64,000 nucleotides of DNA, taken from assembly GCA_016207805.1 (NCBI GenBank), contig JACQZO010000020.1, positions 35,634-99,633 on the forward strand. The letters are read 5' to 3'. The stretch's first letter is position 1, and each line of letters starts with the position of its first letter. Below, one piece after another: positions 636-62,773 of the stretch. Made by a program: the position numbers and the translations under genes. Source of the DNA: Candidatus Abawacabacteria bacterium (GTDB taxonomy: Bacteria > Patescibacteriota > Gracilibacteria > RBG-16-42-10). The notes beneath the pieces are model-generated. The model did not search any database and was not told where the DNA came from. It saw nothing but the letters and a program-made list of their open reading frames with translations.

Positions 636-984
636 AATCTCCCCCCTTCATCTTGAGATGAAAGTTTAAAAGCTAGAATCTAAAATCTAAATTAAAGCGG
701 CGAGTATCGAAAGACCTTCCAGCATATAGTTGGAAGTGTTATGAATATTCAATCAAAGAAGCTGGCTTACTTGCTTTCGTCAAAGCACATTATTTACCGA
801 GACCAGAAACGGCAGGATCCTTCCCATCGATAACACTCGGGGCAGGCACCTGCGCTGCGCTTTGTTTAGGATGAAAAGCAGGTAGATAAATGACGAACAT
901 CGGGACAAGCCTCAAAGAATTCTTGTTACTTCTAATAAATACATATACTCTTCTTCCGTCTCTAAATTCGTAACTTGGAATTTT

Positions 985-2661
985 ATGCAATGCCGTCAAT
1001 GCCAAGCTCATTATTTAGTTAGCAGTGAAGATCTCGCATTTTATGAAAGCATGTCACCAACTTTTGCTGGCAAAAAGTATCCTATACCTAACCCGACACT
1101 TTGCCCTCCATGCCGCCGCCAGAGAAGACTTTCCTTTCGTAATGAAAACAAACTCTACTCTAGAAAATGTGATCAATGCCAAAAAGACATTATTTCTATT
1201 TACTCGCCAGATAAAGAACAAGCTGTCTATTGTATGAAGTGCTGGTGGTCAGAAAAGCATGTACCCACTGACTTTGGCCGCGATTATGATTTTAACCGAC
1301 CTTTTTTTGTCCAATTAACTGAATTATTGAAAAAGACTCCCCTCCCTAATCTAATCGCTACTCCTGATGCTGAAGAAAGCAATTGCGCTTATGTGAATTG
1401 TGCTGGTCACAACAATAATTGTTATATGATCTTTGATGCTGACCATAGTGAAGATTCTCTCTATAGCAATGCTATCAAGGCCAGCAAAAATACGATTGAT
1501 TGCTCTTATATCCAGATGTCTGAGCTTTGTTATCAATGTGTAGATTGTACACAATGTTACAATCTCCTTTATAGCCAAGATTGTGCCAATTGTCGCGACA
1601 GTTATTTTTTGAAAAATTGCATTAGCTGTAATCATTGTATTCTCTGTGTCAATTTACAGCATAAAGAATATTGCATTATGAATCAGCAATATTCAAAAGA
1701 AGACTATGAACAATATGTAGCAAAGCTCAACTTGGGTAATCGTGATAGCATTCCTGCTTTATACGCAAAGCTCAAAGGTTTCGCCAAAGAGCACGCCAAC
1801 AAGTTTTTTCATGGCCATCAAGCAGAAAATAGCAGTGGAGACTATCTATATAATGTCAAAAATTGCAGACACTGCTTCATGACTACTAAAGGTGAAGATC
1901 TCACCTACTGTGACTCCTTAATTGATGCTCGTCATTCTTGTGATATTTCTTCTTTCGGTGAGAATATGGAGCGCTGCTATGAATCAAATGCAATCGGCGA
2001 CAATGTCTATGAAGTGTTTTTTTCTCAACTATGCGCTGGTAATATACGTAATGTCTATTTCAATTTAGGTTCGAGAAACAGCCATGACTGTTTTGGCTGT
2101 ATCGCACTTAAGAGCAATGAATACTGCATTCTGAACAAACAATATAGCAAAGACGACTATGAAAAAATGGTGGCACGAATCATTGAACATATGTTGAGTA
2201 CTGGTGGCTGGGGTGAAGGATTACCAATGTTTATGTCACCTTTTGGTTATAATGAAAGCATGGCCAATATATTTTTCCCCTTAACAAAAGAAGCAGCAAG
2301 CAAATTAGGCGCTAAATGGAAAGATGAAGTAGCTAATACTTCCTCTGCAGCACCAGTTACTGTGCCCGCTGATATTAAAGTAGTTACTGATACAATTATT
2401 AACGAAGTACTCACCTGCAGCAGCTGTCAGAAAAAGTACAAATTGGTAAAACAGGAATTACAATACTATCGAGACCACAATGTACCAGTGCCGATAAATT
2501 GCTTTGATTGCCGTTATCGTATGCGTTTAAGCATGCGAAATCCACAAAAACTTTGGGATAGTCACTGTCAAAAATGTGGCGTTAATTTTGAAACTAGTTA
2601 TGATCCAGCCAAGGAAGATCTGGTATATTGTGAAAAGTGCTACTTGGAAAATGTACATTAA
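985..2661 (+). CDS. Cys-rich zinc-ribbon-bookended family, array member 2 (sites N1+ N2+ C1+ C2+)
   Basis: 558 aa intact ORF. N-module CRQCQ..CPPCRRQRRLSFRNE..RKCDQC..VYCMKCWW. FDFNRPFF. KEYCIMNQQYSKEDYE mid-protein and NEYCILNKQYSKDDYE late. C-module CSSCQKKYKLVKQEL..CFDCRYR..HCQKC..VYCEKCY. Confidence 0.9.
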   Translation: MQCRQCQAHYLVSSEDLAFYESMSPTFAGKKYPIPNPTLCPPCRRQRRLSFRNENKLYSRKCDQCQKDIISIYSPDKEQAVYCMKCWWSEKHVPTDFGRDYDFNRPFFVQLTELLKKTPLPNLIATPDAEESNCAYVNCAGHNNNCYMIFDADHSEDSLYSNAIKASKNTIDCSYIQMSELCYQCVDCTQCYNLLYSQDCANCRDSYFLKNCISCNHCILCVNLQHKEYCIMNQQYSKEDYEQYVAKLNLGNRDSIPALYAKLKGFAKEHANKFFHGHQAENSSGDYLYNVKNCRHCFMTTKGEDLTYCDSLIDARHSCDISSFGENMERCYESNAIGDNVYEVFFSQLCAGNIRNVYFNLGSRNSHDCFGCIALKSNEYCILNKQYSKDDYEKMVARIIEHMLSTGGWGEGLPMFMSPFGYNESMANIFFPLTKEAASKLGAKWKDEVANTSSAAPVTVPADIKVVTDTIINEVLTCSSCQKKYKLVKQELQYYRDHNVPVPINCFDCRYRMRLSMRNPQKLWDSHCQKCGVNFETSYDPAKEDLVYCEKCYLENVH

Positions 2662-2723
2662 GGGCATTGGCTTAAGCAAGAATTGTTGGTATCATTAGAT
2701 GATACACAAATTAAAATCACCGT

Positions 2724-4622
2724 ATGGCACTTGAGAATGTTGGTCATAGACCAAATGATAGCGGAGAACAGAGTTTAAAATTACAGCCAGAACTTCGAGC
2801 AATAAATGCTGAGATTAGAGCCCAAGCTGCAGATGCACTTACAACAGCCCGAAGTGAATTGGCCCGAATGATTGGGGAAGGAGGCCCCTCTTCTCAACGA
2901 GACCGAGTAGGCTCTGGCACTGATCTGCGTGCAACTCCAATGACAGATGCAGAGTTGGCAAGCATGGCGAAAGCATGGTTTTTAGAACGATATATTCCAC
3001 TACGTGACAATACCACTAGAACAGCAACCTTAGAACAACTTCCTGACGCAATCCTGCCTTTATTAGAACGATTCATTGCTGCTCAGACCCCATCTAGTGG
3101 CACAAAAGATCGCATTGTATCAGCTAGTGATATGGCTAGAACGGCAACAAAGCTAACCTTAGCCTTGAAGAAAGATGTGGGAGAGCTAATGGGAGAGGAC
3201 CAACAACGACAGGCAAGAATCTCGAGACATCTCCGAGAAGTAGTAGACTATCAAATCACAACTGATAGCAAAAAAGAAGTTTCCCTAGCTTTCGAGCGAT
3301 TAAATAAACTATTGGGCAAACTAAAAGTATCAGCTCCCGAGATGGCTCAAAGACAGAAAATATTGCTTAGTCTCTTTCCTACTATTAATGATTTTAAAGG
3401 TATTATTTCACGCCTAGAAAAGCTTGCTCCAGAATCGGCTGAATACAAAGCAGCAGTAGCGACAGAGATTGAGCAATTAATGTCCATTTTACTGCCGAAG
3501 TTATATCTATTGGCTGCTACAAACAGCACAGGGAAAAAGCTCTTGGAAGACAATGGCAAGGGCTATTCTGTATCACAATATATAGAATCTATAGCTAAAC
3601 ATTTAGCTTTGGCTATTTTTCATGCACCCAAAACGGATGAATTAGATATTATTGAGATACCAGAAGCCTCAGATGAAGAACCCAAGCCGCGACAAATTCG
3701 AAGCCACCTTCGTGCACCAACAATGACTGGCCCTGTTTATACCCCACCAATACCACCGGAGGCCTTAAAAACAGGTAATGCTCATAATAAGAAAGTTGAC
3801 CGAGCCGCAACCATATCAGGACCTATATATAAGGCACCTCCACCACTTCCGCCCGAAGCCTTGAAGCAACAGGGCAGACTACAGCCAACACAAAAATTAC
3901 CAACTTACCAAGCAATCGTTGCTCAAGCTGGTCATCTAACAAATACCCCAATTATTAGAGCAACTCCGCCAGCTCTCGGACGAACACCAGTTAAACGTAA
4001 TCGCTCAGCCATTGCCGCAACAGCAGTAGCGGCAGCGGCAGCATTTGCTGCGATAGGACGCACTCCTCACTCTACTCCCTCACAAGCCGCTGAACATTCC
4101 ACCGTAACTAGACCAATACAAAGTTTAGCGCCGACACCTCCACCAAGTACTCCTGATATGGCATTTACACCTGAAAATTCTCCAAGCTCCAGTACTTTTC
4201 CTGAAGTTGCCTTCAACAGTCCTATTGCTATGGAGTTACGCAAAAGCTTAGAAGCAAGAGCAGCGGAAGAATATCTTGCGCATTGGATTGATCCTAATAG
4301 ACCAGATCGTCTTCGTCTCCGAGAAAGCATTCGCTTATTACGTGATGGTGTAATACACAAAATGTTAGCTGAACATCCGCGTATCGCAAATTTGCACTCT
4401 AGTCGCAATGGACACCCTTTGACACTAAAAATTGAACACACTGACACTCCTGGCGTATTTTTCATTAAAGTGAAAGATATGAGTAATAATAGCGAAGTAT
4501 TTTCTGAAGAAGTGGTCATTAATGTCAGCCCAACAGAATTAGTGGCTCAGAGAATGCGCTTTGAAGCAAATCAAGCTGCCCAGCAAAGAGCAAGACAACC
4601 TAATATAGATCTTTTTCGATAG
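2724..4622 (+). CDS. hypothetical protein, Pro/Ala-rich with duplicated GP(V/I)Y..PPEALK motif
   Basis: 632 aa ORF with no recognisable domain. Low-complexity Pro/Ala tracts. Motif GPVYTPPIPPEALK and GPIYKAPPPLPPEALK about 30 aa apart. Visibly more GC-rich than the flanking array genes. Confidence 0.7.
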   Translation: MALENVGHRPNDSGEQSLKLQPELRAINAEIRAQAADALTTARSELARMIGEGGPSSQRDRVGSGTDLRATPMTDAELASMAKAWFLERYIPLRDNTTRTATLEQLPDAILPLLERFIAAQTPSSGTKDRIVSASDMARTATKLTLALKKDVGELMGEDQQRQARISRHLREVVDYQITTDSKKEVSLAFERLNKLLGKLKVSAPEMAQRQKILLSLFPTINDFKGIISRLEKLAPESAEYKAAVATEIEQLMSILLPKLYLLAATNSTGKKLLEDNGKGYSVSQYIESIAKHLALAIFHAPKTDELDIIEIPEASDEEPKPRQIRSHLRAPTMTGPVYTPPIPPEALKTGNAHNKKVDRAATISGPIYKAPPPLPPEALKQQGRLQPTQKLPTYQAIVAQAGHLTNTPIIRATPPALGRTPVKRNRSAIAATAVAAAAAFAAIGRTPHSTPSQAAEHSTVTRPIQSLAPTPPPSTPDMAFTPENSPSSSTFPEVAFNSPIAMELRKSLEARAAEEYLAHWIDPNRPDRLRLRESIRLLRDGVIHKMLAEHPRIANLHSSRNGHPLTLKIEHTDTPGVFFIKVKDMSNNSEVFSEEVVINVSPTELVAQRMRFEANQAAQQRARQPNIDLFR

Positions 4623-4643: not shown

Positions 4644-4686
4644 AGAGCTGATATACTATGCTTCATATAGTACTCAGCTCTTTTTG
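4644..4686 (+). terminator. putative intrinsic terminator after the 2724-4622 ORF
   Basis: agagctga (4644-4651) pairs with tcagctct (4674-4681), with further inner pairing tactatg/catagta. A ttttt run follows directly. Lies 22 nt after the stop codon. Confidence 0.5.
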
Positions 4687-4688: not shown

Positions 4689-6371
4689 ATGCCATCTTGC
4701 TCCCAATGCAGTGTTAGCTTCACCATCAGCGAATATGACAAAAAGTTCTATACTCAATTTATTTCTTGTCCCCAAAAAACGATTATTCCTCAGCCGGAAG
4801 CTTGTCCAGATTGTCGTAGACAAAGAAGATTAGCTTTTCGCAATGAAAGTAATTTGTACCAAAGAAAATGCGATCTCTGTAAAAAAGAGATAATCAGTAT
4901 CTACTCGGCCAAAAAGGAGTTTCCAGTATATTGCAGTTCTTGTTTTTGGAGTGATCAGTGGACACCTTTTACCTATGGCAAAGAATTCGACTTTTTTCGT
5001 CCTTTCTTTGAACAATTTAAAGAACTTTTTGATGCTGTGCCAAAGTTAAGCTTGATTTTAGCTGACAATGAAAATAGTGAATACAATAATAGCTGTGCCA
5101 ATCTCAAGAATTGTTATTTATGTTTTGATGGCGGTTTCGCTCAAGACTGTTACTATGGCGAAACATTCGATTATGTTCGGAATTGCGTAAACTTTTTGTG
5201 CTTACAACATTGCGAGCTTTGTTTTGCATGTATTAATTGTAGTAATTGCTATCATCTTTTCTATTCTCATTTCTGCCAAAATTGTTCAGATTCTTATTTT
5301 CTGCTTGATTGTATTGGCTGTAAAAATTGTTTCGGCTGCGCGAATCTCAAACAAAAGGAATATTGTTGGTTTAATGAACAACTGACCAAAGAAGAATTCG
5401 AAATGCGCAGTGCGAAGTTAGAAATGGGAAGCTTCAAAGCAGTAGAAGAGATGCACCAAAAAGTACTGGAATTTTGGCGGTCACAGCCTAAAAGAGCCTA
5501 TCGAGGCAACATGAGTGAAAATGTCACCGGAGATAATATCAACAATTGCACGAATAGCTTTGCTAATTTTGATTGTAATAATTTACAAGATTGCAATTAT
5601 TGTAATCAGGTGGTACTACCGGCCAAAGATTGTCAGGATATAGACAAATGGGGAGACAATATAGAATTGTGCTATAACAGTTCCGGAGTTGGTAACGGTG
5701 GCCAAAATGTAATAGCCAGTTACTATAGTGCATTCAATGCTAGTAATATATTCCATTCAGCTTACTGCTGGTTTAGCTGTAGTAACTTGTTTGGCTGTGT
5801 GGGGCTCAATAGACAAAAACAATACTGCATTTTGAACAAGCAATACTCTCAGGAAGCATATGAGAAGCTCATTAAGCAGATTATAGAGCACATGCAAATA
5901 AGTAAGGAGTGGACTGAATTTTTTCCTCCTCAACTATCTGCTTTTGGTTACAATGAATCCGTAGCTCAAGAATACTATCCCCTCAATAAGGATCAGGCCC
6001 TAGCTCAAGGCTTCAAATGGTCTGATGAAGAGCAAAACTTAGCACTACCCCACAACTCACAGTCAGCCGCAAATTTAGCAGACAATATCAAAGATGTTAC
6101 GGATGACATCCTCAACACAGCTGTTATTTGTAAGGAAACGCAAAAGTTGTTTCGCATCACCAAAGCCGAATTACAATTTTATCGTGCTCATAATATTCCA
6201 TTACCCCGTACCCATCCCAAGATACGCAATGCGTTTTTAAAAGCACAAAAGAATCCTCGCAAACTTTGGCAAAGACGGTGTGACAAATGTGGGCAAGAAA
6301 TCAGCAGCAGCTATTCTCCTAATAGAAAAGAATTAGTATATTGCGAAAAATGTTACACAGCAGAATTTTAG
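4689..6371 (+). CDS. Cys-rich family, array member 3 (N1+ N2+ C1- C2+)
   Basis: 560 aa. N-module CSQCS..CPDCRRQRRLAFRNE..RKCDLCKKEIISIY..VYCSSCFW. C-module ICKETQKLFRITKAEL..THPKIRN (C1 lost) and RCDKCGQ..VYCEKCY. Sister of member 8 (shared RAYRGNMSENVTGDNINNC type block). Confidence 0.9.
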   Translation: MPSCSQCSVSFTISEYDKKFYTQFISCPQKTIIPQPEACPDCRRQRRLAFRNESNLYQRKCDLCKKEIISIYSAKKEFPVYCSSCFWSDQWTPFTYGKEFDFFRPFFEQFKELFDAVPKLSLILADNENSEYNNSCANLKNCYLCFDGGFAQDCYYGETFDYVRNCVNFLCLQHCELCFACINCSNCYHLFYSHFCQNCSDSYFLLDCIGCKNCFGCANLKQKEYCWFNEQLTKEEFEMRSAKLEMGSFKAVEEMHQKVLEFWRSQPKRAYRGNMSENVTGDNINNCTNSFANFDCNNLQDCNYCNQVVLPAKDCQDIDKWGDNIELCYNSSGVGNGGQNVIASYYSAFNASNIFHSAYCWFSCSNLFGCVGLNRQKQYCILNKQYSQEAYEKLIKQIIEHMQISKEWTEFFPPQLSAFGYNESVAQEYYPLNKDQALAQGFKWSDEEQNLALPHNSQSAANLADNIKDVTDDILNTAVICKETQKLFRITKAELQFYRAHNIPLPRTHPKIRNAFLKAQKNPRKLWQRRCDKCGQEISSSYSPNRKELVYCEKCYTAEF

Positions 6372-15310: not shown

Positions 15311-15342
15311 AATTCTGAATTCAGCATTCAGAATTCAGAATT
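15311..15342 (+). repeat. heptamer tract, CTGAATT class, 3' of member 7 stop
   Basis: aattctg aattcag cattcag aattcag aatt, starting 4 nt after the stop. Confidence 0.8.
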
Positions 15343-15364
15343 AACTTCATATTTCCCACCACCT

Positions 15365-17071: not shown

Positions 17072-17073
17072 AG

Positions 17074-17095
17074 GCTAAAATCTAGAATCTAAATT
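17074..17095 (+). repeat. heptamer tract, AATCTAR class, 3' of member 8 stop
   Basis: gctaaaa tctagaa tctaaat t, starting 3 nt after the stop. Confidence 0.8.
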
Positions 17096-17127
17096 AATGA
17101 GAAAGCTCAGAATTAAGAGTTTTTCTA

Positions 17128-17156
17128 TCTTAGCTCTAAGCTCTCAGCTCTTAGCT
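17128..17156 (-). repeat. heptamer tract, AGAGCTR class, abutting the stop of the minus-strand ORF 17157-18488
   Basis: The plus strand reads tcttagc tctaagc tctcagc tcttagc t. In the sense of the minus-strand gene this is AGCTAAG AGCTGAG AGCTTAG AGCTAAG directly after its stop. Confidence 0.8.
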
Positions 17157-18488
17157 TTAAATAACTGGTATTTCTATCAAAATATCTGCCGTCCTACTGC
17201 CCACAGTAATAAGAAAACGCTGTCGGCCATTGGTAGTTTTTCCTTTATCAACTATTTCAACTTGTTCTCGACCATTATGGGTATGAAAGTCGGCAATAGC
17301 TAAGCGCATGCGCCTTGCTAAACGACTTACCACAGCTTGATATTGAGCTTCATTTAATTGTTTGTAAGGATAAAGCAAACTTACTAGCCTTTTTCCTTCA
17401 GGTGTTAATAGTTGATTTAATATTCCTCTTAGCACACCAGCATGATGACCCAATGTCTCAGATTCAGCAGCACTGACATTACCCCTAATGCGATTAAAGT
17501 TATCCTTATAAGGTGTCATATTTGCAGCAGCACTATTTGGTGATTGCCTAGCAATAGTTGCCGCAGTAACTGGTACTTCTGCTGGCACTTCAGACACCGG
17601 AGTCTTAGCCTTAGCAAATACTCCTAGTAAACCGACTAACAGTTTAGCACGTAGTGAACTAGAGAAATAACGCCTCTTCCGACGAGCCACGACTTTTTCT
17701 ATCATCTTTTTATAGTCTTCAAATTCTTGAGCTTTCTTTTTTTGTTTATAACGCATTCTGATAGTAAATAGCCAATTCTTAAAGCGGCATGCTGCTTTTT
17801 TACCAACAGAACGCCAACTACACCATTCCTCTAAGTTGCATGCTTGCTGAAAAATATTATTTACTCTAAATACCATTTCTTCTGCTTGCGCCGGAGATAA
17901 AGGATGGGTATTGCCTCGCATCTTTTGATGATACTGATGGAACCAGGTTTGTAAGGCAGCTTTTAAGTCTACAATCATTTGTGGCTTGATTTGGCGATAA
18001 TCAATACATTGAACAAGTGCATTGTATGGTCGCTGAAGAATAGCAGGTACTGTAGTAGCAGAGATAATTGATAAAAGTTTATGCAACTGAGCAAGCAGAA
18101 TAGTTTTTGCCGTTAAGATATTTTCGATAATATTTACACTTTTATCCGCTAGCCTGGGAGCATTAAATTGATTTTCAATCTTTTGCCAATCCCCACTAGT
18201 AGCTAATAGCATTGGCGCAATAGCTTGAGGAGCTTCAATGGGAGCAATTAGCTGAGGAGCTTCTAAATCAGGTTCAAGCATGGGCCCAGTAGGAACATCC
18301 AATACTACTGCCCGTTCTTCGGTCAAAGGAGCAAGAGTTGGCTGTATTGCATCTGGACCCGATTTTGCGTCTGCTCCAGATTCAGTCACTTCTGTTAAAG
18401 CTTGCTGTATTTTATCCCTTACAGGAGCTCTAGGAGCACGCAGTTTAGGCTGCTCACGATTCCGCAAATCAACATCTATTCCATCCAT
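17157..18488 (-). CDS. hypothetical protein (orphan), Pro/Ala-rich N-terminal third
   Basis: 443 aa ORF with no recognisable domain. Short repeat EAPQLIAPIEAPQAIAP. The C-terminal about 50 aa resemble the C terminus of the 2724-4622 protein. Confidence 0.65.
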   Translation of the reverse strand: MDGIDVDLRNREQPKLRAPRAPVRDKIQQALTEVTESGADAKSGPDAIQPTLAPLTEERAVVLDVPTGPMLEPDLEAPQLIAPIEAPQAIAPMLLATSGDWQKIENQFNAPRLADKSVNIIENILTAKTILLAQLHKLLSIISATTVPAILQRPYNALVQCIDYRQIKPQMIVDLKAALQTWFHQYHQKMRGNTHPLSPAQAEEMVFRVNNIFQQACNLEEWCSWRSVGKKAACRFKNWLFTIRMRYKQKKKAQEFEDYKKMIEKVVARRKRRYFSSSLRAKLLVGLLGVFAKAKTPVSEVPAEVPVTAATIARQSPNSAAANMTPYKDNFNRIRGNVSAAESETLGHHAGVLRGILNQLLTPEGKRLVSLLYPYKQLNEAQYQAVVSRLARRMRLAIADFHTHNGREQVEIVDKGKTTNGRQRFLITVGSRTADILIEIPVI

Positions 18489-20388: not shown

Positions 20389-20460
20389 AGGCAGAAGTCA
20401 GATGCCTGCCCTGAGTCGAATCGAAGGGGCAGGAGGCAGAAGTTAGGGGGAGGAAACTGC
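20389..20460 (+). repeat. heptamer tract, CAGAAGN class, with internal hairpin, 3' of member 9 stop
   Basis: ggcagaa gtcagat gcctgcc ctgagtc gaatcga aggggca ggaggca gaagtta ggggg. ctgccc pairs with gggcag. Confidence 0.7.
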
Positions 20461-20503: not shown

Positions 20504-21247
20504 ATGCAGGATTTTTTTATCATTGATGATGTCAAAGTGTTTGGGCGAAAAGTAGATGATGTGGCAATCAGAGATATCGATAATATCGTGATTACTCAAG
20601 AGAGCTTATTACATGTGGTAAGACACTTCTCACAACTTAGTCAACAAAGCAGAAAAAGTTTATTAGAGAAAAAGCATGATACTGAAAGGCAGATAGAAGT
20701 TACGGAAAAAATGATCGATGAATTGCTGCATACTGCTGGCTCCAAATTTCATCCTCAATTACAAGATTTGCATTACGTACTTTCATGCTTACTTAGCTAT
20801 ACTAAAGGACATGTTACTGCTGGCCTTAAGGCTCCTTGGATAGAGTTTTCTTCTTTGCCAGGAGAATACTATACAGAGATTCATTTCACTATTACATCTG
20901 AACAAAAAGAAGAGTTAGGACTATCACAAGACGAATTCATAGGTACACTAGGAGCTGTACCAATCAATGAAGAAAATATCGCTTTTGTTCAGCCAGAACA
21001 AAGAGGAGCAGGAGATAAAGCTGATGATATTATTGTGAATATAATTAAAGAATTAGATCCACCACTGACTGATACCATTACTATCGGCTTAGCAAAAAAC
21101 CCTGAAACATTAGTAGTACGACTAACTACTATCTTTACTTCCGATGGCAAGTTTTCGCCGCTATTTCCTAATGCCGAAAAGCAGTCACCAGAGGAGTTTG
21201 CCTATAATAAACAATGGTGGGAACAATACGCCTTTTTTAAGAGCTGA
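20504..21247 (+). CDS. hypothetical protein
   Basis: 247 aa ORF between members 9 and 10. No recognisable motif. Its stop codon lies inside an AGAGCTR heptamer tract. Confidence 0.6.
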   Translation: MQDFFIIDDVKVFGRKVDDVAIRDIDNIVITQESLLHVVRHFSQLSQQSRKSLLEKKHDTERQIEVTEKMIDELLHTAGSKFHPQLQDLHYVLSCLLSYTKGHVTAGLKAPWIEFSSLPGEYYTEIHFTITSEQKEELGLSQDEFIGTLGAVPINEENIAFVQPEQRGAGDKADDIIVNIIKELDPPLTDTITIGLAKNPETLVVRLTTIFTSDGKFSPLFPNAEKQSPEEFAYNKQWWEQYAFFKS

Positions 21248-21272
21248 GAGCTAAGAGCTAAATGCTAAGAGG
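21241..21272 (+). repeat. heptamer tract, AGAGCTR class, overlapping the stop of the 20504-21247 ORF
   Basis: gagctga gagctaa gagctaa atgctaa gagg. Confidence 0.8.
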
Positions 21273-25743: not shown

Positions 25744-25745
25744 CC

Positions 25746-25810
25746 AGAGCTGAGAGCGAAGAGCTAAGATAGAAAAATTCTCAGCTCTCAGTATTTAGCT
25801 CTTAGCTCTA
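25746..25810. repeat. heptamer inverted repeat (AGAGCTR arms) filling the member 11/12 spacer
   Basis: Left arm agagctg agagcga agagcta agat. Right arm tctcagc tctcagt atttagc tcttagc tcta. Near-identical element at 34439-34489. Confidence 0.8.
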
Positions 25811-27488: not shown

Positions 27489-27514
27489 ATACAGAGTAGT
27501 CGATTCCAGATTCA

Positions 27515-27547
27515 TTTATAATTTGTAATTCGTAATTTGTAATTAAT
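27515..27547 (+). repeat. heptamer tract, GTAATTY class, directly 5' of member 13 start
   Basis: tttataa tttgtaa ttcgtaa tttgtaa ttaat, then ATG. Confidence 0.85.
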
Positions 27548-29233: not shown

Positions 29234-29273
29234 TTTCTAATTTGTAATTCGTAATCCGTAATTTGTAATTCTT
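29231..29273 (+). repeat. heptamer tract, GTAATTY class, forming the whole member 13/14 spacer
   Basis: taatttc taatttg taattcg taatccg taatttg taattct t, then ATG. The first unit includes the member 13 TAA stop. Confidence 0.85.
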
Positions 29274-30929: not shown

Positions 30930-30967
30930 TTCTGAATGCAGAATGCTGAATTCTGAATTTAATTCAG
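30928..30967 (+). repeat. heptamer tract, CTGAATK class, 3' of member 14 stop
   Basis: aattctg aatgcag aatgctg aattctg aatttaa ttcag. Confidence 0.8.
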
Positions 30968-32672: not shown

Positions 32673-32680
32673 GACTAGAA

Positions 32681-32753
32681 AGCAAAGAGCAAAGAGCAAG
32701 GAGCAAAGATATAGCTCCCCTAAACACCTTGCTCTTTGCTCTCTACTCTTTGC
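32681..32753. repeat. heptamer inverted repeat (AGCAAAG class) in the member 15/16 spacer
   Basis: agagcaaagagcaagg (32686-32701) is perfectly complementary to ccttgctctttgctct (32727-32742), a 16 bp stem with a loop of about 25 nt. The arms are AGCAAAG AGCAAAG AGCAAGG AGCAAAG and CCTTGCT CTTTGCT CTCTACT CTTTGC. Confidence 0.85.
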
Positions 32754-32768
32754 ACTTTAACCTATTCT

Positions 32769-34436: not shown

Positions 34437-34438
34437 CC

Positions 34439-34489
34439 AGAGCTAAGAGCTGAGAGCGAAGAGCTAAGATCGGCTCACTCTTAGCTCTA
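34439..34489. repeat. heptamer inverted repeat (AGAGCTR arms) in the member 16/17 spacer
   Basis: agagcta agagctg agagcga agagcta agat cggctcac tcttagctcta. Homologous to the 25746-25810 element. Confidence 0.8.
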
Positions 34490-47016: not shown

Positions 47017-47056
47017 GGAATTAGAATTATAGATTCTAGATTCTAAAATCTAGATG
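47017..47056. repeat. heptamer tract, AATCTAR class, between tRNA-Tyr and ABC-F
   Basis: ggaatta gaattat agattct agattct aaaatct agatg. Confidence 0.75.
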
Positions 47057-47079
47057 AAATATAGTGAAGAAGTCTCCCA

Positions 47080-47114
47080 TTTCTAATTCCTAATTACTAA
47101 TTCACAATTTTCTT
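47080..47114 (+). repeat. heptamer tract, CTAATTN variant of the leader class, directly 5' of the ABC-F start
   Basis: tttctaa ttcctaa ttactaa ttcacaa ttttctt, then GTG. Confidence 0.8.
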
Positions 47115-48610: not shown

Positions 48611-48647
48611 TTCATTTGTAATTCGTAATTAGTAATTCGCAATTGTT
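48611..48647 (+). repeat. heptamer tract, GTAATTY class, directly 5' of msrB start
   Basis: ttcattt gtaattc gtaatta gtaattc gcaattg tt, then ATG. Confidence 0.85.
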
Positions 48648-49525: not shown

Positions 49526-49563
49526 CTTCATTTGTAATTCGTAATTCATAATTTGTAATTTCT
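49526..49563 (+). repeat. heptamer tract, GTAATTY class, directly 5' of nitroreductase start
   Basis: cttcatt tgtaatt cgtaatt cataatt tgtaatt tct, then ATG. Confidence 0.85.
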
Positions 49564-50193
49564 ATGTCTTTCCTCGATTCCCTCAATTGGCGTTATGCAA
49601 CCAAAGTATTCGATACCAATAAAAAATTGTCAGCAGAACAACTTCATCTCGTTACTGAATCTTTACGCTTATCTCCCTCTTCTTTTGGCTTACAACCATG
49701 GAAGTTTGTAGTAGTAAGTGATCCAGCCCTCAGAGTAAAGTTGCGCGAAGCTGCCTGGGGACAAGCTCAAGTTACCGACGCATCTCATTTAATTGTTTTA
49801 TGTACCTTAAATACACTTGATACAGCCTACATTGATAGATTTGTGGATTTCATTGTCCAAGAAAACGGTGCTCCAAGAGAAGCATTACAAGGTTATCGTG
49901 ACATGATGGTTGGTTCCATATCCCCACTTAATCCTGAACAATTACAAGCATGGATGCAAAAACAAGTTTACATAGCCCTAGGCGTAGCATTAAGCGCATG
50001 TGCTGTTAATCAAATTGATGCCGCACCGATGGAAGGCTTTGACAAAAATAAATTTGACGAAATTCTAGGACTGAATGCATTAGGAATAAAATCTGCTGTA
50101 CTTTGTGCTGTAGGTTTTAGAAGTGACACGGACAGCAATGCTCAGCAACAAAAAGTACGTTGGCCAGAAAACGAAGTAATTATGGGGAAATAA
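49564..50193 (+). CDS. NAD(P)H nitroreductase family protein
   Basis: 209 aa. RYATKVFD..LSPSSFGLQPWKFVVV..AAWGQAQV..IDAAPMEGF is typical of NfsB/oxygen-insensitive nitroreductases. Confidence 0.85.
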   Translation: MSFLDSLNWRYATKVFDTNKKLSAEQLHLVTESLRLSPSSFGLQPWKFVVVSDPALRVKLREAAWGQAQVTDASHLIVLCTLNTLDTAYIDRFVDFIVQENGAPREALQGYRDMMVGSISPLNPEQLQAWMQKQVYIALGVALSACAVNQIDAAPMEGFDKNKFDEILGLNALGIKSAVLCAVGFRSDTDSNAQQQKVRWPENEVIMGK

Positions 50194-53467: not shown

Positions 53468-55351
53468 GTGGGTAAGAAAAGCATCAAGCGCGAACAAGAT
53501 TCACTTGCCAAGTATCCTGCGGAAGTCCGGTTATTGATCAAAAAGGGTAAAGAACAAGGCTTTGTCACTCAGCAAGAAGTCATGCACGCCATTCCTGAAT
53601 TTGAAACCAATTTGGCATTGGTGGAAGAAATCATGATGCAATTTTTGGAACATGGTATCGAAATTGTCGATAGTCAACAAGAATTTATTTGGAAAGATGC
53701 TCAAAAAGAAAATGCTGAAACAAAGGAAAAAAGCTCAGAAGATAAATTACGTGACAAATTTCTTTCTACCAATAAGAAAAATTTCGCTCTAGGCGATATT
53801 GCTGGCGACTCCATTAGAATGTATTTACGAGAAATTGGCCGTGTAGAACTTTTGACTGCCGAAGAAGAGGTGATGCTCGCAAAACGAATTACCAAGCATG
53901 ATCCTGTAGCTAAAAGACAACTTGCTGAAGCTAACCTTCGTTTGGTAGTAAGCATTGCCAAAAAGTATGTTGGTCGTGGCCTTTCTCTCTTGGATTTAAT
54001 TCAAGAAGGAAATATTGGTTTATTTCGAGCAGTAGAAAAGTTTGATTATCGTAAAGGCTTCAAATTTTCCACTTATGCTACTTGGTGGATACGGCAAGCT
54101 ATTACTCGAGCAATAGCTGATCAAGCTCGTACCATTCGTATTCCCGTACATATGGTGGAAACAATTAATAAATTTACCCACACTCAACGTCGCCTCGTCC
54201 AAGAATTGGGACGTGAACCATTGATCGAAGAAATCGCCCAAGAAATGGGCATGGATGTAAAAAAAATCCGCTATATCAAAAAGATTTCCCAAGATATTGT
54301 CTCTCTAGAAGCACCAGTAGGATCAGATGGTGATAATTCTGGTAGATTGGGCGACTTTATTGAAGATGACGTTACCTTGAGTCCTTCATCTCAAGCTTCA
54401 AGACAACTTTTGAAAGAAGATGTTCACCGTTTGTTGCAATCTCTCACTCCACGTGAGCAGAAAATTATTAGCATGCGTTTTGGTCTAGAAGATGGTATTG
54501 GCCATACTTTGGAAGAAGTAGGCCAAGAATTTGGCGTCACTCGTGAACGTATCCGTCAAATTGAAGCCAAGGCTTTGGTCAAATTACGCGAACATCCTGA
54601 AAGTGTTCGTATCAATTTAAGTAAAGCCGAACAAGCTCAAGATAATGATCTCAACTTTTTGAGTACGAGCATGAGTTTTACCTACTTTCCTGATTTAGTA
54701 TTTTTAGGACCACCAGGTAGTGGCAAAACATCTCAGGCCCACAAGCTAGCAGAGCGTTATGATATGACCATTTTTGACTTACAACATGAGCTGCAAAAAA
54801 CAATGAAATTGGACAATAATGTGGGCAGACGTGTGAAACATTTACTCACTGCTGGACAAATTGTCCCTAGTGAAATTTTACAACAAATATTAGAACAATT
54901 TCTTATTACGGTACCAGCAGACAAACCCATTATTTTTGATAGTTTCCCTCGTAATTTAGCTCAAGCAGACTTCTTCAATCGCATGATGAGCCAAAACAAA
55001 AGGAATTTTGTCGTCGTCCTCTTCAATACCAGTGACGACCATGCTCTTACCCGCATCACCAAAAAGAAAGTGTGTGGCTACTGTCAGACTGTTTATTCAG
55101 CAGATTCCACACTAGAAACATGTGAAAAGTGTCAGCATGAATTGAAATTAGTCAAAGAAGAAAACATGGTAGGCATGAAGCTGAGATTGAGCTCCTACTA
55201 CCAAGAAACAGCGCCAATAGTCCCCCTATACGAAAAAATCGGCAAAGTAATCAGTATCAATGCCGATGAAAACGAATTTGAAGTAAATTTAGCTCTCACG
55301 GATAGATTAGAGACTTTTGGCCTGGAGAAGAAAAGAAAGGGAGGGAAATAA
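53468..55351 (+). CDS. rpoD: RNA polymerase sigma-70 (RpoD) fused in frame to an adenylate kinase domain
   Basis: 627 aa, GTG start. Sigma regions [81 protein letters not shown]. From about aa 402 (ATG at 54671): P-loop [25 protein letters not shown], lid [27 protein letters not shown]. Confidence 0.85.
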
Positions 55352-55355
55352 CTCC

Positions 55356-55387
55356 GAATTCTGAATGCGGAATGCTGAGTTCTGAAT
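55356..55387. repeat. inverted-repeat arm (CTGAATK heptamers), 3' of rpoD-adk stop
   Basis: gaattctgaatgcggaatgctgagttctgaat. The reverse complement of 55471-55502 is gaattctgaatgcagaaagctgaattcagaat (about 27 of 32 identical). Confidence 0.8.
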
Positions 55388-55470
55388 TGAATGAGGAGGC
55401 TGCGTCCCTTTCTGCTTTTCAAAAAAATCATACATTATCGTCTATTCAACAACTTTCGTTCCCACTGTCC

Positions 55471-55502
55471 ATTCTGAATTCAGCTTTCTGCATTCAGAAT
55501 TC
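55471..55502. repeat. inverted-repeat arm (CTGAATK heptamers) overlapping the PGM/PMM stop
   Basis: attctgaattcagctttctgcattcagaattc. Partner of 55356-55387, about 83 nt away. Confidence 0.8.
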
Positions 55503-56913
55503 ATTTCAAAGCTTCCACATTCACTCCCTCACTCCAATCAATATTGGCAAATTGGTGTAATATTGCACTAATTTGTTCTTTGAGTAGATTATATTTTTGT
55601 AGCGTTTTTGCTTCAAATTTAATTGTTAAATAGGGACCATTTTGAGAAGCACGCATAATTACCATTTCATCTTTGGTGTCTAGTCTCACACCATCAATAG
55701 TGACATATTCTGCTTCAGGATAAAGTCTTCTTAATTCAGCTTGAATTTCATTATCTATCAAATGAAACTTCTCATTATCGGGACAGCCTAGTTTAATTTC
55801 TGGACTAGAAATATAGCTGGGGAAAGTAGCAAGCACTTGCCCCAATGTCTTTTTCTTACGAGTTAAATAAGCCAATAAACGCAATGATGCGATAGCACCA
55901 TCATCATGACCGTAAAAATTATCAACGAAGTAAAAATGGCCACTCAATTCGCCCCCAAATGCCGCTCCCTCTTCTCGCACTTTCGCTTTAATAAAAGAAT
56001 GTCCCGTCTTCCACATTACCGGCACTCCGCCACTACGCTTAATGACTTCAGTAACTTGCTTAGAACACAAAGTATTAAATACGATTTTAGCACCAGGTAA
56101 ATTATCCAAAATGTCACCAGCAAATAATGACACCAATGTATCATTCCACAATAGCTTCCCCTGTTCATCTACTGCCCCCATTCGATCACCATCAGCATCA
56201 TAAGAGAAACCTACATCAGCTTGTTCGAGTTTGACCCGATCAGCCAAACGCCTTTGGACAATTGACTCAGTAGGATCAGGAGTACCAACAGGGAAATTGC
56301 CATCTGGAACAGTATTTTGTTCAATCACAGTACAACCAAATTCACGTAAAATCTGGGGCAAAAATGCACCAGCAGTAGCTGCACAAGCATCAATTACCAC
56401 CTTGAATGATTTAATGGGACCAATATAGCGTTTCAAATCAGCTATATAAGCCGGGAAAATAGTACTACGAATATGCTTGCCGGCGACCGGTAAAGCGACA
56501 AATTCTCCCTCATTCACCATGTGCTTAAACAATTGAATATCTTCAGTCAACATCGTCTCAGAGTAGCCAGTACCAAATTTAAAACCATTATATTCTTTAG
56601 GATTATGTGAAGCTGTAATCATAATCATTCCCCGAGTACGAAAATAATACTGAGCGAAATAAGCAACCTGAGTCAATGTCATGCCGATGTCATAGACGGT
56701 AATACCTGCTGAAAGCAACGTTTCAACAACAATATCCCGAAAATGAGGACTACTTAACCGACAATCAAAACCAACAACACAATCAGGAATACGGCGTTTA
56801 ATTAACCACGTAGCATATGCCTTGGCTATGGTTGCAACCACTTCATCACTTAGTTCTTTCTCCACCAAGCCGCGAATATCATAACCTCGAAAAATGTGTT
56901 GAGAAACAGACAT
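55501..56913 (-). CDS. phosphoglucomutase/phosphomannomutase family protein
   Basis: 470 aa. Active-site loop ITASHNPKEYNGFK, metal loop SYDADGDRMG, sugar-binding GELSGHF. Confidence 0.9.
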   Translation of the reverse strand: MSVSQHIFRGYDIRGLVEKELSDEVVATIAKAYATWLIKRRIPDCVVGFDCRLSSPHFRDIVVETLLSAGITVYDIGMTLTQVAYFAQYYFRTRGMIMITASHNPKEYNGFKFGTGYSETMLTEDIQLFKHMVNEGEFVALPVAGKHIRSTIFPAYIADLKRYIGPIKSFKVVIDACAATAGAFLPQILREFGCTVIEQNTVPDGNFPVGTPDPTESIVQRRLADRVKLEQADVGFSYDADGDRMGAVDEQGKLLWNDTLVSLFAGDILDNLPGAKIVFNTLCSKQVTEVIKRSGGVPVMWKTGHSFIKAKVREEGAAFGGELSGHFYFVDNFYGHDDGAIASLRLLAYLTRKKKTLGQVLATFPSYISSPEIKLGCPDNEKFHLIDNEIQAELRRLYPEAEYVTIDGVRLDTKDEMVIMRASQNGPYLTIKFEAKTLQKYNLLKEQISAILHQFANIDWSEGVNVEALK

Positions 56914-56947
56914 AGAAATTACAAATTACGAATTACAAATTCCAAAT
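56914..56947 (-). repeat. heptamer tract, GTAATTY class, directly 5' of the minus-strand PGM/PMM start
   Basis: The minus strand reads catttgg aatttgt aattcgt aatttgt aatttct ATG. Same sequence and orientation relative to the gene as the plus-strand leader tracts. Confidence 0.85.
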
Positions 56948-56989
56948 GGTCGGAACAAATAAGGAAGGAAATTATAGAAACATATTTCC

Positions 56990-57024
56990 CTAAAAAACGG
57001 AAGGATGAACTGGTTCATCCTTCC
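56990..57024 (-). terminator. intrinsic terminator after the TPR/holB-like genes
   Basis: The minus strand reads GGAAGGATGAAC CA GTTCATCCTTCC G TTTTTT: a 12 bp perfect palindromic stem (56999-57024) followed by a U run. Confidence 0.7.
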
Positions 57025-57040
57025 ATTTTCCCTGAGCCCT

Positions 57041-57071
57041 ATTTGTAATTTGGCATTTGTAATTCGTAATT
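57041..57071. repeat. GTAATTY heptamer tract, inverted partner of 56914-56947
   Basis: atttgta atttggc atttgta attcgta att abuts the stop of the TPR ORF. Together with 56914-56947 it brackets about 90 nt that contain the terminator. Confidence 0.8.
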
Positions 57072-60868: not shown

Positions 60869-60877
60869 CTATTCCTT

Positions 60878-60922
60878 CCCTTACTTCTGCCCTCTGCCTC
60901 CTGCCTTCTAACTTCACCTCAA
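60878..60922 (+). repeat. heptamer tract (pyrimidine strand of the CAGAAGN class), directly 5' of mutL start
   Basis: ccttact tctgccc tctgcct cctgcct tctaact tcacctc aa, then ATG. Confidence 0.75.
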
Positions 60923-62659
60923 ATGATCCGCATTCTCCCCGAACATGTCATCAATCAAATTGCTGCTGGAGAAGTAGTAGAGCGCCCAGCTTCTATTGTA
61001 AAAGAATTGATAGAAAACAGTTTAGACGCCAAGGCTGATCACATCGTGATCAATTTACGCAATGGTGGCAAAGGATTAATTCGGATTAGTGACAATGGTA
61101 CTGGTATCGCCCCAGAAGAATTAGACCAAGCTGTGCTTCGTCATGCTACTAGCAAAATCGCCAAGATTGAAGATTTAGATCATGTGCTCACTTTAGGCTT
61201 TCGCGGTGAAGCATTGGCCAGTATCGCTTCAGTAAGCCAGATGTATCTTGAAAGTAAAACATCAACGAGTAATAGCGCAAGTACTATTACCATGGACCAT
61301 GGCCGTATCGAGAATAAAAATACCGCAGCGCGCGAACAAGGAACCACGGTCAATATTGAAAATTTATTTGCTAAGATTCCTGCTCGCCGCAAGTTTCTCA
61401 AAAGTGATCGCCAAGAATTGGCAGTGATTGTGCGTCTAATCCAAGAAATCGCCTTAGCCAATCCCGCTGTTCATTTCGAACTCAATCATAATGGTCAAGA
61501 ATTACTAAACACACCGCCAAGAAAAAGCTTATTAGAAAAGTTTTATGACATTTTTCCCAGTCCCGATTTGCCAGGGAAAATGATGGCCATTGAACAAGAA
61601 GAAAATGGCCTAAAACTGCAAGCAATTATTTCTCAGCCAATCATAAAACGCGCCAGCAAAGGACAACAAATGGTAGCAGTCAATCAGCGCACCATTCGTG
61701 ACTATCGTATTAATAAAACCATTGAAGACGCCTATCATACTTTTCTGCTCAGTTCAGAACATCCAATATTCTTCCTTCACCTATCAGTAAACCCTCAAGA
61801 AATAGACGTCAATGTCCACCCCCGAAAAAATGAGGTGCGCTTTGAACATTTGGACCACATACTAAGCTTCATTTATCGCTCAGTGAAAGGAACCCTAGAA
61901 AAGCAGATTCTGTCAGTTAACCCAAGTTTTAATTCGAAATTCGAAATTCCAAATGCACAGTTGAGCCCCACTTCGAACTTCGAATTTCGCACTTCGCACT
62001 CCCCATCAAATTCCGTAGCCTCTCCCTCAAATACATATCAAGCAGCCCAATTCAATCAATTATTTACAGAGGAAACGCCTCCTCGGCCTATCAAGGTTGT
62101 AAGCCAAATCAAGAATTCTTATATTTTGTGTACTGCAGAACAAAGTCTCATTTTGTTTGATCAACATGCAGCCCATGAACGCTTTATTTATGAAGAATTA
62201 AAAAAAACTAGAGCACAAAAGAGTACTCAGCAATTGATGAACCCACTAGAATTGACAGCCACCGCTGAGCAAAGCATTTTATTAGCTGAGCAACAACAAA
62301 ACTTTGCCAATTTTGGTATTCAGTTAGAACAAAGCGGCCCTAATAATTGGCTAATCACAGACGTTCCTAATATGCCCCGTTCATATAAAATTGATTGGTC
62401 ACAAGTTGTACTCAATAGCTTAGATCAAGTACATGCTGAATCTCTAACTCATAGCCTGCAAGATCACGAAGATGACATTTTGCACACTATGGCCTGCAAA
62501 GCAGCAGTAAAGTTTAATGATCATTTAAGTCTCAGTGAATTACAGCGCCTCATAGATGATGTCGCCTATTTACCAGGCATCTATACCTGTCCCCATGGGA
62601 GGCCGTTTAGATTAGAGCTGACTTTTAATGAGTTAGATAGATATTTCAAGAGACACTGA
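60923..62659 (+). CDS. mutL: DNA mismatch repair protein MutL
   Basis: 578 aa. IRILPEHVINQIAAGEVVERPASIVKELIENSLDA, GFRGEALASI, C-terminal CPHGRP. Confidence 0.95.
   Translation: MIRILPEHVINQIAAGEVVERPASIVKELIENSLDAKADHIVINLRNGGKGLIRISDNGTGIAPEELDQAVLRHATSKIAKIEDLDHVLTLGFRGEALASIASVSQMYLESKTSTSNSASTITMDHGRIENKNTAAREQGTTVNIENLFAKIPARRKFLKSDRQELAVIVRLIQEIALANPAVHFELNHNGQELLNTPPRKSLLEKFYDIFPSPDLPGKMMAIEQEENGLKLQAIISQPIIKRASKGQQMVAVNQRTIRDYRINKTIEDAYHTFLLSSEHPIFFLHLSVNPQEIDVNVHPRKNEVRFEHLDHILSFIYRSVKGTLEKQILSVNPSFNSKFEIPNAQLSPTSNFEFRTSHSPSNSVASPSNTYQAAQFNQLFTEETPPRPIKVVSQIKNSYILCTAEQSLILFDQHAAHERFIYEELKKTRAQKSTQQLMNPLELTATAEQSILLAEQQQNFANFGIQLEQSGPNNWLITDVPNMPRSYKIDWSQVVLNSLDQVHAESLTHSLQDHEDDILHTMACKAAVKFNDHLSLSELQRLIDDVAYLPGIYTCPHGRPFRLELTFNELDRYFKRH
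61931..62003 (+). repeat. heptamer-periodic inverted repeat inside the mutL linker coding region
   Basis: aattcga aattcga aattcca aatgcac ... cacttcg aacttcg aatttcg cacttcg cactccc. cgaaattcgaa (61935-61945) is complementary to ttcgaatttcg (61979-61989). Translated in frame as NSKFEIPNAQLSPTSNFEFRTSHS. Confidence 0.75.
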
Positions 62660-62742
62660 TTGAAGTCAGAGGTCAGAAGGCAGAAGTAAGTAAGAAGTTA
62701 GTAATTATTACTTCTGAATTCTGCCTTCTGCCATCTGCCTTT
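62660..62742. repeat. heptamer inverted repeat (CAGAAGN class), terminator-like, 3' of mutL
   Basis: tgaagtc agaggtc agaaggc agaagta agtaaga faces acttctg aattctg ccttctg ccatctg cc. cagaaggcagaa (62674-62685) is perfectly complementary to ttctgccttctg (62719-62730). A ttttt run follows. Confidence 0.75.
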
Positions 62743-62773
62743 TTATGTTACTTTTTCGCTGAATATCTTTCCT

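Follow-up and report, generated by a model that had tools for sequence, protein, structure and literature searches.

What are the 7-nt tandem repeats that crowd the gene junctions of a 64-kb stretch of a Candidatus Abawacabacteria genome (contig JACQZO010000020.1; hereafter the window, in whose coordinates positions are given), and what kind of element do they belong to? The window has a GC content of 38% and is 91% coding and 9% non-coding. Here we show that heptamer arms bracket genes of the IVP family (PF05635, "23S rRNA IVP") both in the window and across phyla, and that the polarity of these arms is alike in both settings. We consider it marginally probable that the spacers are heptamer arrays of the short tandemly repeated repetitive (STRR) type, serving as stem-forming arms of elements that resemble rRNA intervening sequences (IVSs) and colonise the junctions between cistrons.

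Period-7 arrays in the spacers of the window

A sequence-only reading of the window had proposed that many of its spacers are built from 7-nt-periodic repeats. Autocorrelation showed identities of 0.333, 0.316, 0.296 and 0.282 in non-coding DNA at lags 7, 14, 21 and 28 against a baseline of ~0.27, whereas coding DNA displayed period 3 only, with no rise at lag 7. Strict detection, which required 3 units and no fewer than 5 invariant columns out of 7, yielded 27 period-7 arrays in the window, 23 of them in the non-coding 9%; at periods 8-12 it returned no array. In 35 spacers, the 23 strict arrays compared with 0.15 ± 0.40 in dinucleotide-preserving shuffles, and lag-7 identity (0.358) far exceeded that of the shuffles (0.275 ± 0.007; z = 12.5). 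Array density reached 4.2 per 10 kb in the window and ~40 per 10 kb in its non-coding DNA, compared with 0.66 in control loci (80 unrelated bacterial loci, 1.33 Mb). About 13% of the non-coding DNA of the window consists of heptamer repeats. These results bear out the proposed period-7 signal, as a property of non-coding DNA and far above shuffled controls.

The repeat classes named in that reading, GTAATTY, AGAGCTR, AATCTAR, CTGAATK, AGCAAAG and CAGAAGN, were all recovered in the window. The seventh, AGAC-type, is also present as arrays, with a period of 6-7 and not strictly 7. Since the CTGAATK unit is quasi-palindromic, its orientation is ambiguous. The analogy drawn to the STRR repeats of Nostocales, reportedly described by Mazel in 1990, holds insofar as the window carries dispersed, non-coding tandem heptamer arrays of several classes; it stops short in that the host is a bacterium that belongs to the candidate phyla radiation (CPR) and the classic units are missing. 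The STRR1-3 units are CCCCAGT, TTGGTCA and CAACAGT; no tandem copies of them occurred in the window, and TAACTGA units were absent too.

Some of the Nitrospirota control loci (L024, L038) had raised heptamer-array counts (5-8 per locus), and a metagenome contig with a GC content of 65% (L091) contained heptamer arrays described as AT-rich (TTCGTAA, ATACGAA, CCGACCG). Heptamer-rich genomes may be spread more widely than reported.

Inverted arrays bracket IVP genes

The two IVP genes of the window lie in the following cassettes:

37854-38344, plus strand: IVP1 cassette, with the IVP gene (PF05635) at 37961-38311.
41755-42245, minus strand: IVP2 cassette, with the IVP gene at 41796-42149; the layout is kept in the relative L210.

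Both genes are bracketed by inverted arrays, which pair with each other in the minimum free energy fold of the whole cassette. The arms of IVP1 comprise AATCTAR units on the 5' side (37854-37887) and YTAGATT units on the 3' side (38310-38344), with ~30 bp of pairing, and IVP2 is flanked by GAAGACN arrays of period 6-7 at 42205-42245 and 41755-41795. The predicted dG of the arm duplex was -30.7 for IVP1, -52.7 for IVP2 and -55.8 for the IVP2 ortholog of L210. In addition, the spacer 17072-17160 holds a 52-nt remnant of the 3' end of an IVP gene together with an arm, 92% identical to 38281-38332, and the spacer at 25744 carries the other half of the same element. These results show that at least one spacer without an open reading frame (ORF) is a decayed IVP cassette.

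IVP genes were then assessed in loci chosen by their arrays and in loci chosen blind to them. A metagenome scan for (GTAATTY)4 yielded more than 120 contigs with GC contents of 25-67%. These array-chosen loci contained 6 IVP homologs in 716 kb, compared with 1 in the 1.33 Mb of controls (~11-fold), and in five of the six cases arrays stood on either side of the gene. In the controls, the single IVP gene, on a Zixibacteria chromosome (L074), was bracketed by another heptamer. The array-blind sample comprised 14 distinct IVP loci from IMG/VR and 10 inspected loci on named plasmids, from Nostoc, Anabaena, Planktothrix, Euhalothece, Bernardetia, Chondrinema, Treponema, Monoglobus and Chlorohelix. 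Arrays again lay at the IVP flanks, usually inverted, and the heptamer differed each time. Counted over the IMG/VR and plasmid loci and L074, an array lay within 100 nt of 37 of 50 IVP gene boundaries, compared with 2 of 82 when the neighbouring genes of these loci were scored (Fisher P = 2.5e-19).

The 5' arm was more purine-rich than the 3' arm in 17 of 20 IVP cassettes (0.58 vs 0.40, P = 5e-5), and this purine-then-pyrimidine polarity is that of the window spacers. The heptamer is kept among close IVP proteins but not among distant ones, and it can already differ between proteins that are 74-76% identical. IVP1-like genes were found on 30 of 72,556 plasmids, 25 of them cyanobacterial and 16 of these from Nostoc; Nostoc and the other cyanobacterial hosts of IVP1 plasmids are classic STRR hosts.

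On plasmids (L228-L237), the IVP cassettes, annotated as "four helix bundle protein", occupy junctions between cistrons in operons or in defence loci, for example in Monoglobus (L231), Anabaena cylindrica (L233), Chondrinema (L235) and Bernardetia (L230); the contexts include hsdS/hsdR, cas2/cas1, an RND adaptor/permease pair, a site upstream of recF, and DUF1156/HEPN. A hairpin-containing segment of ~85 nt is duplicated in Chlorohelix (L237), with one copy on each side of the IVP gene.

Dispersed families shared between non-orthologous spacers

Spacers that follow different paralogs and housekeeping genes have 11-mers, non-periodic flanks and loops in common (3-5 spacers). The shared motifs include CCAGAGCT...AGCTCTAACAYCCT, as well as GAGCTAAGATAGAAAAA, TTCATTTRTAATT and AATCTAAATTAA, and one shared motif was found again at a non-orthologous site of L210. 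The spacer 25744-25810 has arm and loop sequence in common with the spacer at 17072 and with a non-orthologous L210 spacer. Co-duplication of spacers with the paralogous genes beside them was ruled out as the source of this likeness, the paralogs being only 35-60% identical. These results show that the arrays form dispersed families common to non-orthologous sites.

Position, folding and polarity of the arrays

The other array-bearing features of the window are as follows:

667-693, plus strand: solo AATCTAR array, 31 nt past a stop; 100% identical over 30 nt to the IVP1 5' arm.
4644-4685, plus strand: hairpin CCAGAGCTGA...TCAGCTCT followed by T5, with a single AGAGCTR unit; terminator-like, z = -4.2.
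15311-15344, plus strand: quasi-palindromic CTGAATK/CAGAATT array, 3 nt past a stop; 12-bp hairpin, z = -9.0.
17072-17160, minus strand: convergent spacer with, in minus-strand order, an AGAGCTR array immediately past the stop of 17157-18488, the IVP 3' remnant of ~52 nt, and a YTAGATT array.
20389-20420, plus strand: purine-rich units of the CAGAAG type, immediately 3' of a stop.
21237-21271, plus strand: AGAGCTR array that begins within an ORF and holds its stop (21245-21247); weak complementary partner downstream.
25744-25810, plus strand: hairpin between paralogs, built from an AGAGCTR arm, a loop and a YAGCTCT arm; dG -28.9, z = -3.7.
27514-27548, plus strand: (GTAATTY)4 array ending 3 nt 5' of an ATG; unstructured.
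29226-29271, plus strand: GTAATTY/CTAATTT array that fills the entire 40-nt spacer, holds a stop (29231-29233) and terminates 3 nt 5' of an ATG; dG 0.
30928-30959, plus strand: CTGAATK array that overlaps a stop and pairs with a partner downstream in a hairpin.
32677-32758, plus strand: AGCAAAG and CTTTGCT arms that form a hairpin, perfectly paired over a 16-bp core; dG -33.5.
34437-34489, plus strand: AGAGCTR/YAGCTCT hairpin with flanks near-identical to those at 25744; the neighbouring genes are only ~41-43% identical.
47025-47104, plus strand: two arrays, one YTAGATT/AATCTAG and one CTAATTY, lying between tRNA-Tyr and the ABC-F start.
48612-48645, plus strand: (GTAATTY)4 array ending 3 nt 5' of the msrB ATG.
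49530-49564, plus strand: (GTAATTY)4 array ending 3 nt 5' of the nitroreductase ATG.
55353-55500, no strand assigned: convergent spacer between rpoD::adk and pgm, with CTGAATK arms at both ends, each directly 3' of a stop; ~30 bp of pairing, dG -43, z = -3.9.
56913-57071, minus strand: RAATTAC arm after the stop of the TPR gene and GTAATTY arm before the pgm start, enclosing a canonical terminator hairpin with T-run (56999-57024); dG -60.4, z = -9.6.
60884-60909, plus strand: solo CTTCTGC array, 13 nt 5' of the mutL start; unstructured.
61929-62000, plus strand: two in-frame arrays (AATTCGA, ACTTCGM) within the linker coding region of mutL (60923-62659).
62662-62748, plus strand: CAGAAGN arm and CTTCTGC arm followed by T5; hairpin between mutL and cca, dG -35.1, z = -3.8.

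The claim that such elements fill cistron boundaries precisely agrees with this distribution: arrays abut stops and starts, and they are scarce in spacers that hold only divergent promoters (4 of 21, compared with 35 of 67 elsewhere; P = 0.011), despite the greater length of the divergent spacers. The three stop codons placed inside repeat units (21245-21247, 29231-29233 and 55501-55503) proved exact. The in-frame arrays in the MutL linker encode FNSKFEIPN...SNFEFRTSHS, and lag-7 periodic DNA with NSEF-like motifs occurs likewise in the MutL linker of L082, L084 and L087.

Long stems between spacer arms had also been claimed, and the two quoted as perfect, of 16 bp (32686-32701/32727-32742) and 12 bp (62674-62685/62719-62730), are so. 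Folding of the spacers supported several strong stems, with z between -3 and -9.6 and stem lengths of 12 to ~30 bp, in ~9 of 29 spacers; hairpins at z < -3 were limited to these, and several arrays are solitary and unstructured. Three hairpins have a T-tract (4644-4685, 62662-62748 and the terminator at 56999-57024).

Purine-rich arms had been assigned to the positions after stops and pyrimidine-rich arms to those before starts. In the window this polarity was significant, with a purine fraction of 0.60 in stop-proximal and 0.40 in start-proximal arrays (P = 0.007, minus-strand genes included). On inspection, a rule by which the sense orientation is the one with stop triplets failed across classes. 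At six genes, including msrB, the nitroreductase gene and pgm, a (GTAATTY)4 module ends exactly 3 nt 5' of the ATG; these start-proximal arrays are unstructured and precede starts that have no Shine-Dalgarno site. A sigma-70 promoter scan gave no match on the arrays, and its overall promoter count equalled that of shuffles, so a promoter reading of the GTAATTY arrays was rejected. The start-proximal geometry was not universal either: in metagenomes, 8 of 87 (GTAATTY)n arrays lay within 10 nt of the start of a long ORF, with a weak orientation bias.

Across 142 genes of the window and its relatives, Shine-Dalgarno cores occurred in the 25 nt upstream of only 7 starts, the G content of these 25 nt was 12%, and T occupied position -1 in 56% (YTATG context). 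This composition suggests Shine-Dalgarno-independent initiation in the Abawacabacteria lineage. Because leaders are G-poor and lack Shine-Dalgarno sites throughout the lineage, G-rich classes would take their G-poor orientation before starts, which probably accounts for part of the polarity.

Spread and turnover among relatives

Relatives were found via homologs of MutS and of the paralogs described below (L082, L084, L086, L087, L088, L210 and L211), and classes were surveyed in the 64-kb window and ~180 kb from these relatives. The MutS protein of the window is 100% identical to one in an NCBI entry for a Candidatus Abawacabacteria metagenome-assembled genome; the MutS proteins of the relatives are 60-74% identical to that of the window, and synteny is kept. 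Most showed a lag-7 and lag-14 signal in non-coding DNA, with many heptamer classes in common with the window. Lag-7 identity in non-coding DNA was 0.34-0.38 in L082, L084, L087, L088 and L210, compared with 0.277 in the outgroup L089 (44% MutS identity), which had no heptamer signal. Orthologous spacers carry other classes in the relatives, or there is no spacer, which counts against a conserved, sequence-specific RNA function; so do the equal stability of folds on the two strands, the many arrays with a single arm and the share of the G-poor leaders in the polarity. The junction between mutL and cca illustrates this turnover:

Window: CAGAAG/CTTCTGC hairpin.
L082: (ATTCAGA)6 array.
L084: AATTAGC/AATTCGT array.
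L087: GCGGARA hairpin.
L086 and L088: 2-6 nt only, no array.

The junctions of the paralog array likewise have differing classes or zero spacer between genes that are 65-82% identical. These results show that the heptamer arrays are a lineage trait that is positionally labile. The RNase III gene rnc lies within the syntenic block of all five relatives.

Gene content of the window

From 985 to 43998, the window carries ~19 full-length paralogs in tandem (for example 985-2661, 4689-6371 and 42316-43998), preceded by a partial copy at 6-635; they encode an uncharacterised protein of ~555 aa that is rich in Cys. The paralogs have zinc-ribbon-like ends, and their sole Pfam match is weak (zf_Tbcl_2). 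They are 35-60% identical among themselves and each has orthologs of 65-82% identity in relatives, so the paralog array is ancient. A homology search returned more than 6,800 matches (E ≤ 1e-5); the named top matches come from Gracilibacteria, Peregrinibacteria and other Patescibacteria, and all are annotated as hypothetical.

A housekeeping block contains an ABC-F gene, msrB, ogt, nitroreductase and methyltransferase genes, dnaG, rpoD fused to adenylate kinase, pgm, TPR and holB-like genes, mutS, mutL and cca. There are also two tRNAs, besides the two PF05635 genes; the Rfam scan of the window returned these tRNAs and nothing else, with no rRNA. In the fusion (53468-55351, directly after dnaG), RpoD regions 1.1-4 and the adenylate kinase domain form one ORF, and the fusion is kept in the Abawacabacteria relatives L084 (5002-6876), L086 (6367-8256) and L087 (4908-6800). 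Two large Pro/Ala-rich proteins with no Pfam match (632 and 443 aa; 2724-4622, plus strand, and 17157-18488, minus strand) lie inside the paralog array, and their C-terminal ends look alike. The 349-nt spacer 636-984 opens with the exact copy of the IVP1 5' arm and has no long ORF and no Rfam match; that it is a decayed IVP cassette was ruled out, as the 5' arm alone matches and there is no protein remnant.

The ORF called at 32736 (TTG) begins inside the pyrimidine-rich arm of a hairpin. Its true start is most likely the ATG at 32769, because translation from there gives a paralog-like N-terminus and the codon stands in a TCTATG context; the pyrimidine-rich arm is therefore non-coding.

Discussion

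In the reading that we slightly favour, an element would consist of a purine-rich array, a cargo and a complementary pyrimidine-rich array, the cargo being nothing, a terminator hairpin or a small IVP/S23p gene (PF05635, Avd-like). Such elements would spread or recombine into cistron junctions, and their arms would lengthen and shorten by 7-nt slippage that is invisible to mismatch repair. Since 7 is not a multiple of 3, the arrays would be purged from ORFs owing to the cost of frameshifts and stop codons, the MutL linker being a tolerated exception. Near start codons only the G-poor orientation would be tolerated, and this constraint on leaders, combined with a polarity from purine to pyrimidine that is intrinsic to the element, would set orientation. 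In the transcript, stems of 12-38 bp would be targets of RNase III or would form 3'-end structures, keeping cistrons apart or stabilising them; the IVS precedent and rnc in the relatives suggest such processing or stabilisation. Solitary arrays would be leftover arms, serving as unstructured leaders that lack a Shine-Dalgarno site. The RNA-level role suggested in the sequence-only reading is plausible and gains indirect support from the two long stems around IVP genes, a layout known from rRNA IVSs that RNase III cuts (PMC4990558), from the T-tracts of three hairpins and from a polarity that tracks gene sense on both strands.

Several results weigh against this interpretation. No target-site duplication and no clean pair of filled and empty sites were found, no transposase (REP-associated tyrosine transposase or insertion sequence) is present in the 64-kb window, and near-identical assemblies showed no copy-number differences in arrays. 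Only two sites and one remnant are IVP-adjacent among ~19 array-bearing window spacers; those with no IVP gene could have arisen by slippage, each independently, and for many individual arrays one of the rival accounts below may hold. Both the IMG/VR sample and the plasmid sample are small, and the plasmid loci were hand-picked, blind to arrays. At the RNA level, most array stems have no T-tract, rnc was not seen in the window itself, and sense and antisense fold energies of the spacers differed in no consistent way. A case for RNA-level selection from such folding was dropped, both strands being equally stable. The polarity of the window did not extend significantly to five relatives (purine fraction 0.46 stop-proximal vs 0.39 start-proximal, P = 0.34) or to (GTAATTY)n arrays in metagenomes at large. 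The gene models of the window are ORF-based.

A neutral origin, in which the arrays are simple sequence repeats (SSRs) that arose by in-place slippage of 7-nt seeds and survive where frameshifts are harmless, with no function and no link to IVP, strikes us as unlikely. It agrees with the fast turnover between relatives, where some orthologous spacers are empty, with stops inside units, as if arrays had outgrown gene ends, with arrays in the tolerant MutL linker and with the similar fold energies of the two strands; in many bacteria, moreover, long SSRs are most often heptamers (PMC4679880, PMC4692102). It does not sit well with non-periodic flanks and loops common to non-orthologous spacers, with a GTAATTY module that is constant at four units and at a 3-nt offset from the ATG of six genes, or with the highly specific association with IVP genes. 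The consistent purine-to-pyrimidine polarity and the depletion of arrays from divergent spacers, although these are longer, also oppose it.

That the arrays are cis-acting RNA elements selected by the host, independent of any mobile or IVS-like element, we regard as improbable. Maintained at each junction, they would act as intercistronic hairpins for termination, 3'-end protection or translational coupling, and as unstructured leaders for initiation independent of Shine-Dalgarno sites. Most junctions conserve neither sequence nor position, 2-20 nt of spacer suffice in close relatives, and many arrays are single-armed, with no partner, all of which speak against such selection; so does the lack of any compensatory pattern or G:U bias favouring the sense strand. 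The idea draws its strength from an orientation that tracks gene sense on both strands and from strong hairpins, three of them with T-tracts and one arm pair around a canonical terminator. The mutL-cca and pgm 3' junctions, moreover, bear arrays in several relatives despite a changed heptamer, and start-proximal arrays lie at the position of ribosome binding, in a lineage that almost lacks Shine-Dalgarno sites. Similar proposals have been made for TAACTGA and hupS-hupL repeats (PMC4679880, PMC2670836).

We think it very unlikely that the arrays are binding sites of a repeat-recognising protein, either the IVP/Avd-like protein itself, a pentamer that binds nucleic acids, or one of S1/Csp type, in a regulon-like network. 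IVP genes between arrays do resemble autoregulation, and close IVP proteins retain the same heptamer; Avd homologs bind nucleic acids in diversity-generating retroelements (PMC10053308), and MacGregor proposed a repeat-binding protein as mobile agent (PMC4679880). Set against this, at least six heptamer classes face only two IVP genes in the window, IVP proteins of 74-76% identity can have different heptamers, and S23p of Coxiella is apparently unexpressed (PMC4990558). An assembly chimera or cyanobacterial contamination of the metagenome-assembled genome was tested and rejected with virtually no doubt: heptamer repeats are best known from Nostocales and can confuse assemblers, but an independently assembled Logan contig is 100% identical to the window over 6,959 nt, six related genomes from other samples have arrays between their syntenic CPR genes, and the window has zero cyanobacterial genes.

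Dispersed heptanucleotide tandem arrays are known in Nostocales, Xanthomonas and Beggiatoaceae (PMC4679880, PMC4692102, PMC2670836), and in several phyla no long SSR is commoner than the heptamers, whose role is unexplained (PMC4679880, PMC4692102). Mrazek 2007, as cited in PMC4679880, attributes the preference for heptamer units to polymerase-related reasons. As in STRR and other long SSR systems, the units of the window are 7 nt long, tandem, intergenic and of several classes, often in inverted pairs able to form stem-loops, with 3-7 copies per array and variation between related genomes; unlike in those systems, the host is a CPR bacterium with a small genome, and the arrays make up most of very short cistron spacers. 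For STRR hairpins between hupS and hupL, transcript stabilisation, translational coupling or termination has been proposed (PMC2670836), and heptamers near recF and recO affect expression in Nostoc (bioRxiv 10.1101/2022.06.06.494920). TAACTGA repeats of marine Beggiatoaceae (PMC4679880) resemble the arrays of the window in ending a few nt before starts that lack a Shine-Dalgarno site. The window differs from them in having other heptamers of many classes and many arrays that are stop-proximal or paired. The phyletic distribution of TAACTGA repeats is sporadic and includes Cyanobacteria and Bacteroidetes (PMC4679880). Repetitive extragenic palindromes (REP), bacterial interspersed mosaic elements (BIME) and palindromes like miniature inverted-repeat transposable elements (MITE) are likewise dispersed imperfect palindromes after stops within operons, and a likeness may be drawn to their possible role in stabilising mRNA 3' ends; unlike REP and MITE, the elements of the window have arms of tandem heptamers, and no transposase, no terminal inverted repeat and no target-site duplication was identified for them.

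IVP is an uncharacterised Avd-like family of rRNA intervening sequences, including those of CPR bacteria (PMC10053308; bioRxiv 10.1101/2024.02.27.582315), and IVSs of 23S rRNA with IVP/S23p are known in Leptospira, Coxiella, Brucella and Xanthomonas (PMC4990558). In the 23S IVS of Coxiella, the terminal stem is 28 bp long, and stem and leader contain 2-3 tandem GACAGAT heptamers upstream of an S23p ORF that is apparently not expressed; the GACAGAT copy number varies by strain, and the first repeat is where RNase III cuts (PMC4990558). As in such IVSs, long terminal stems in the window enclose a PF05635 ORF of ~120 aa, and ORF-less versions exist. The cassettes of the window differ in lying between protein-coding cistrons and not in rRNA helices, and in having longer, multi-unit arrays as arms. 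Our literature search found no paper that generalises the link between IVP and heptamers and none that reports heptamer repeats in CPR bacteria.

A broader and more tentative possibility, which we would not yet call probable, is that heptamer arrays and IVP genes belong together, as the arms and the optional cargo of a single widespread element that is selfish or acts in processing. Classical 23S IVSs would then be its rRNA-resident subset, while ORF-less derivatives would have spread through cistron junctions in Abawacabacteria and Nostocales, where RNase III cleavage of the stems would cut or stabilise polycistronic mRNAs. If true, this would explain the origin of STRR repeats, open since 1990, and would give context to the uncharacterised IVP family.

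The window thus contains a known kind of repeat system in a new lineage, and inverted arrays that bracket IVP genes at cistron junctions join two phenomena. For the annotation of CPR and cyanobacterial genomes this bears on spacers, starts and small IVP cassettes, which are easily mis-called, as at the start called at 32736. Heptamer repeats, PF05635 proteins and IVP-carrying rRNA IVSs have all been unexplained so far, and the link between IVP genes and arrays ties them together. If that link holds, it would provide a testable model in which the repeats are IVS-like elements acting on mRNA junctions.

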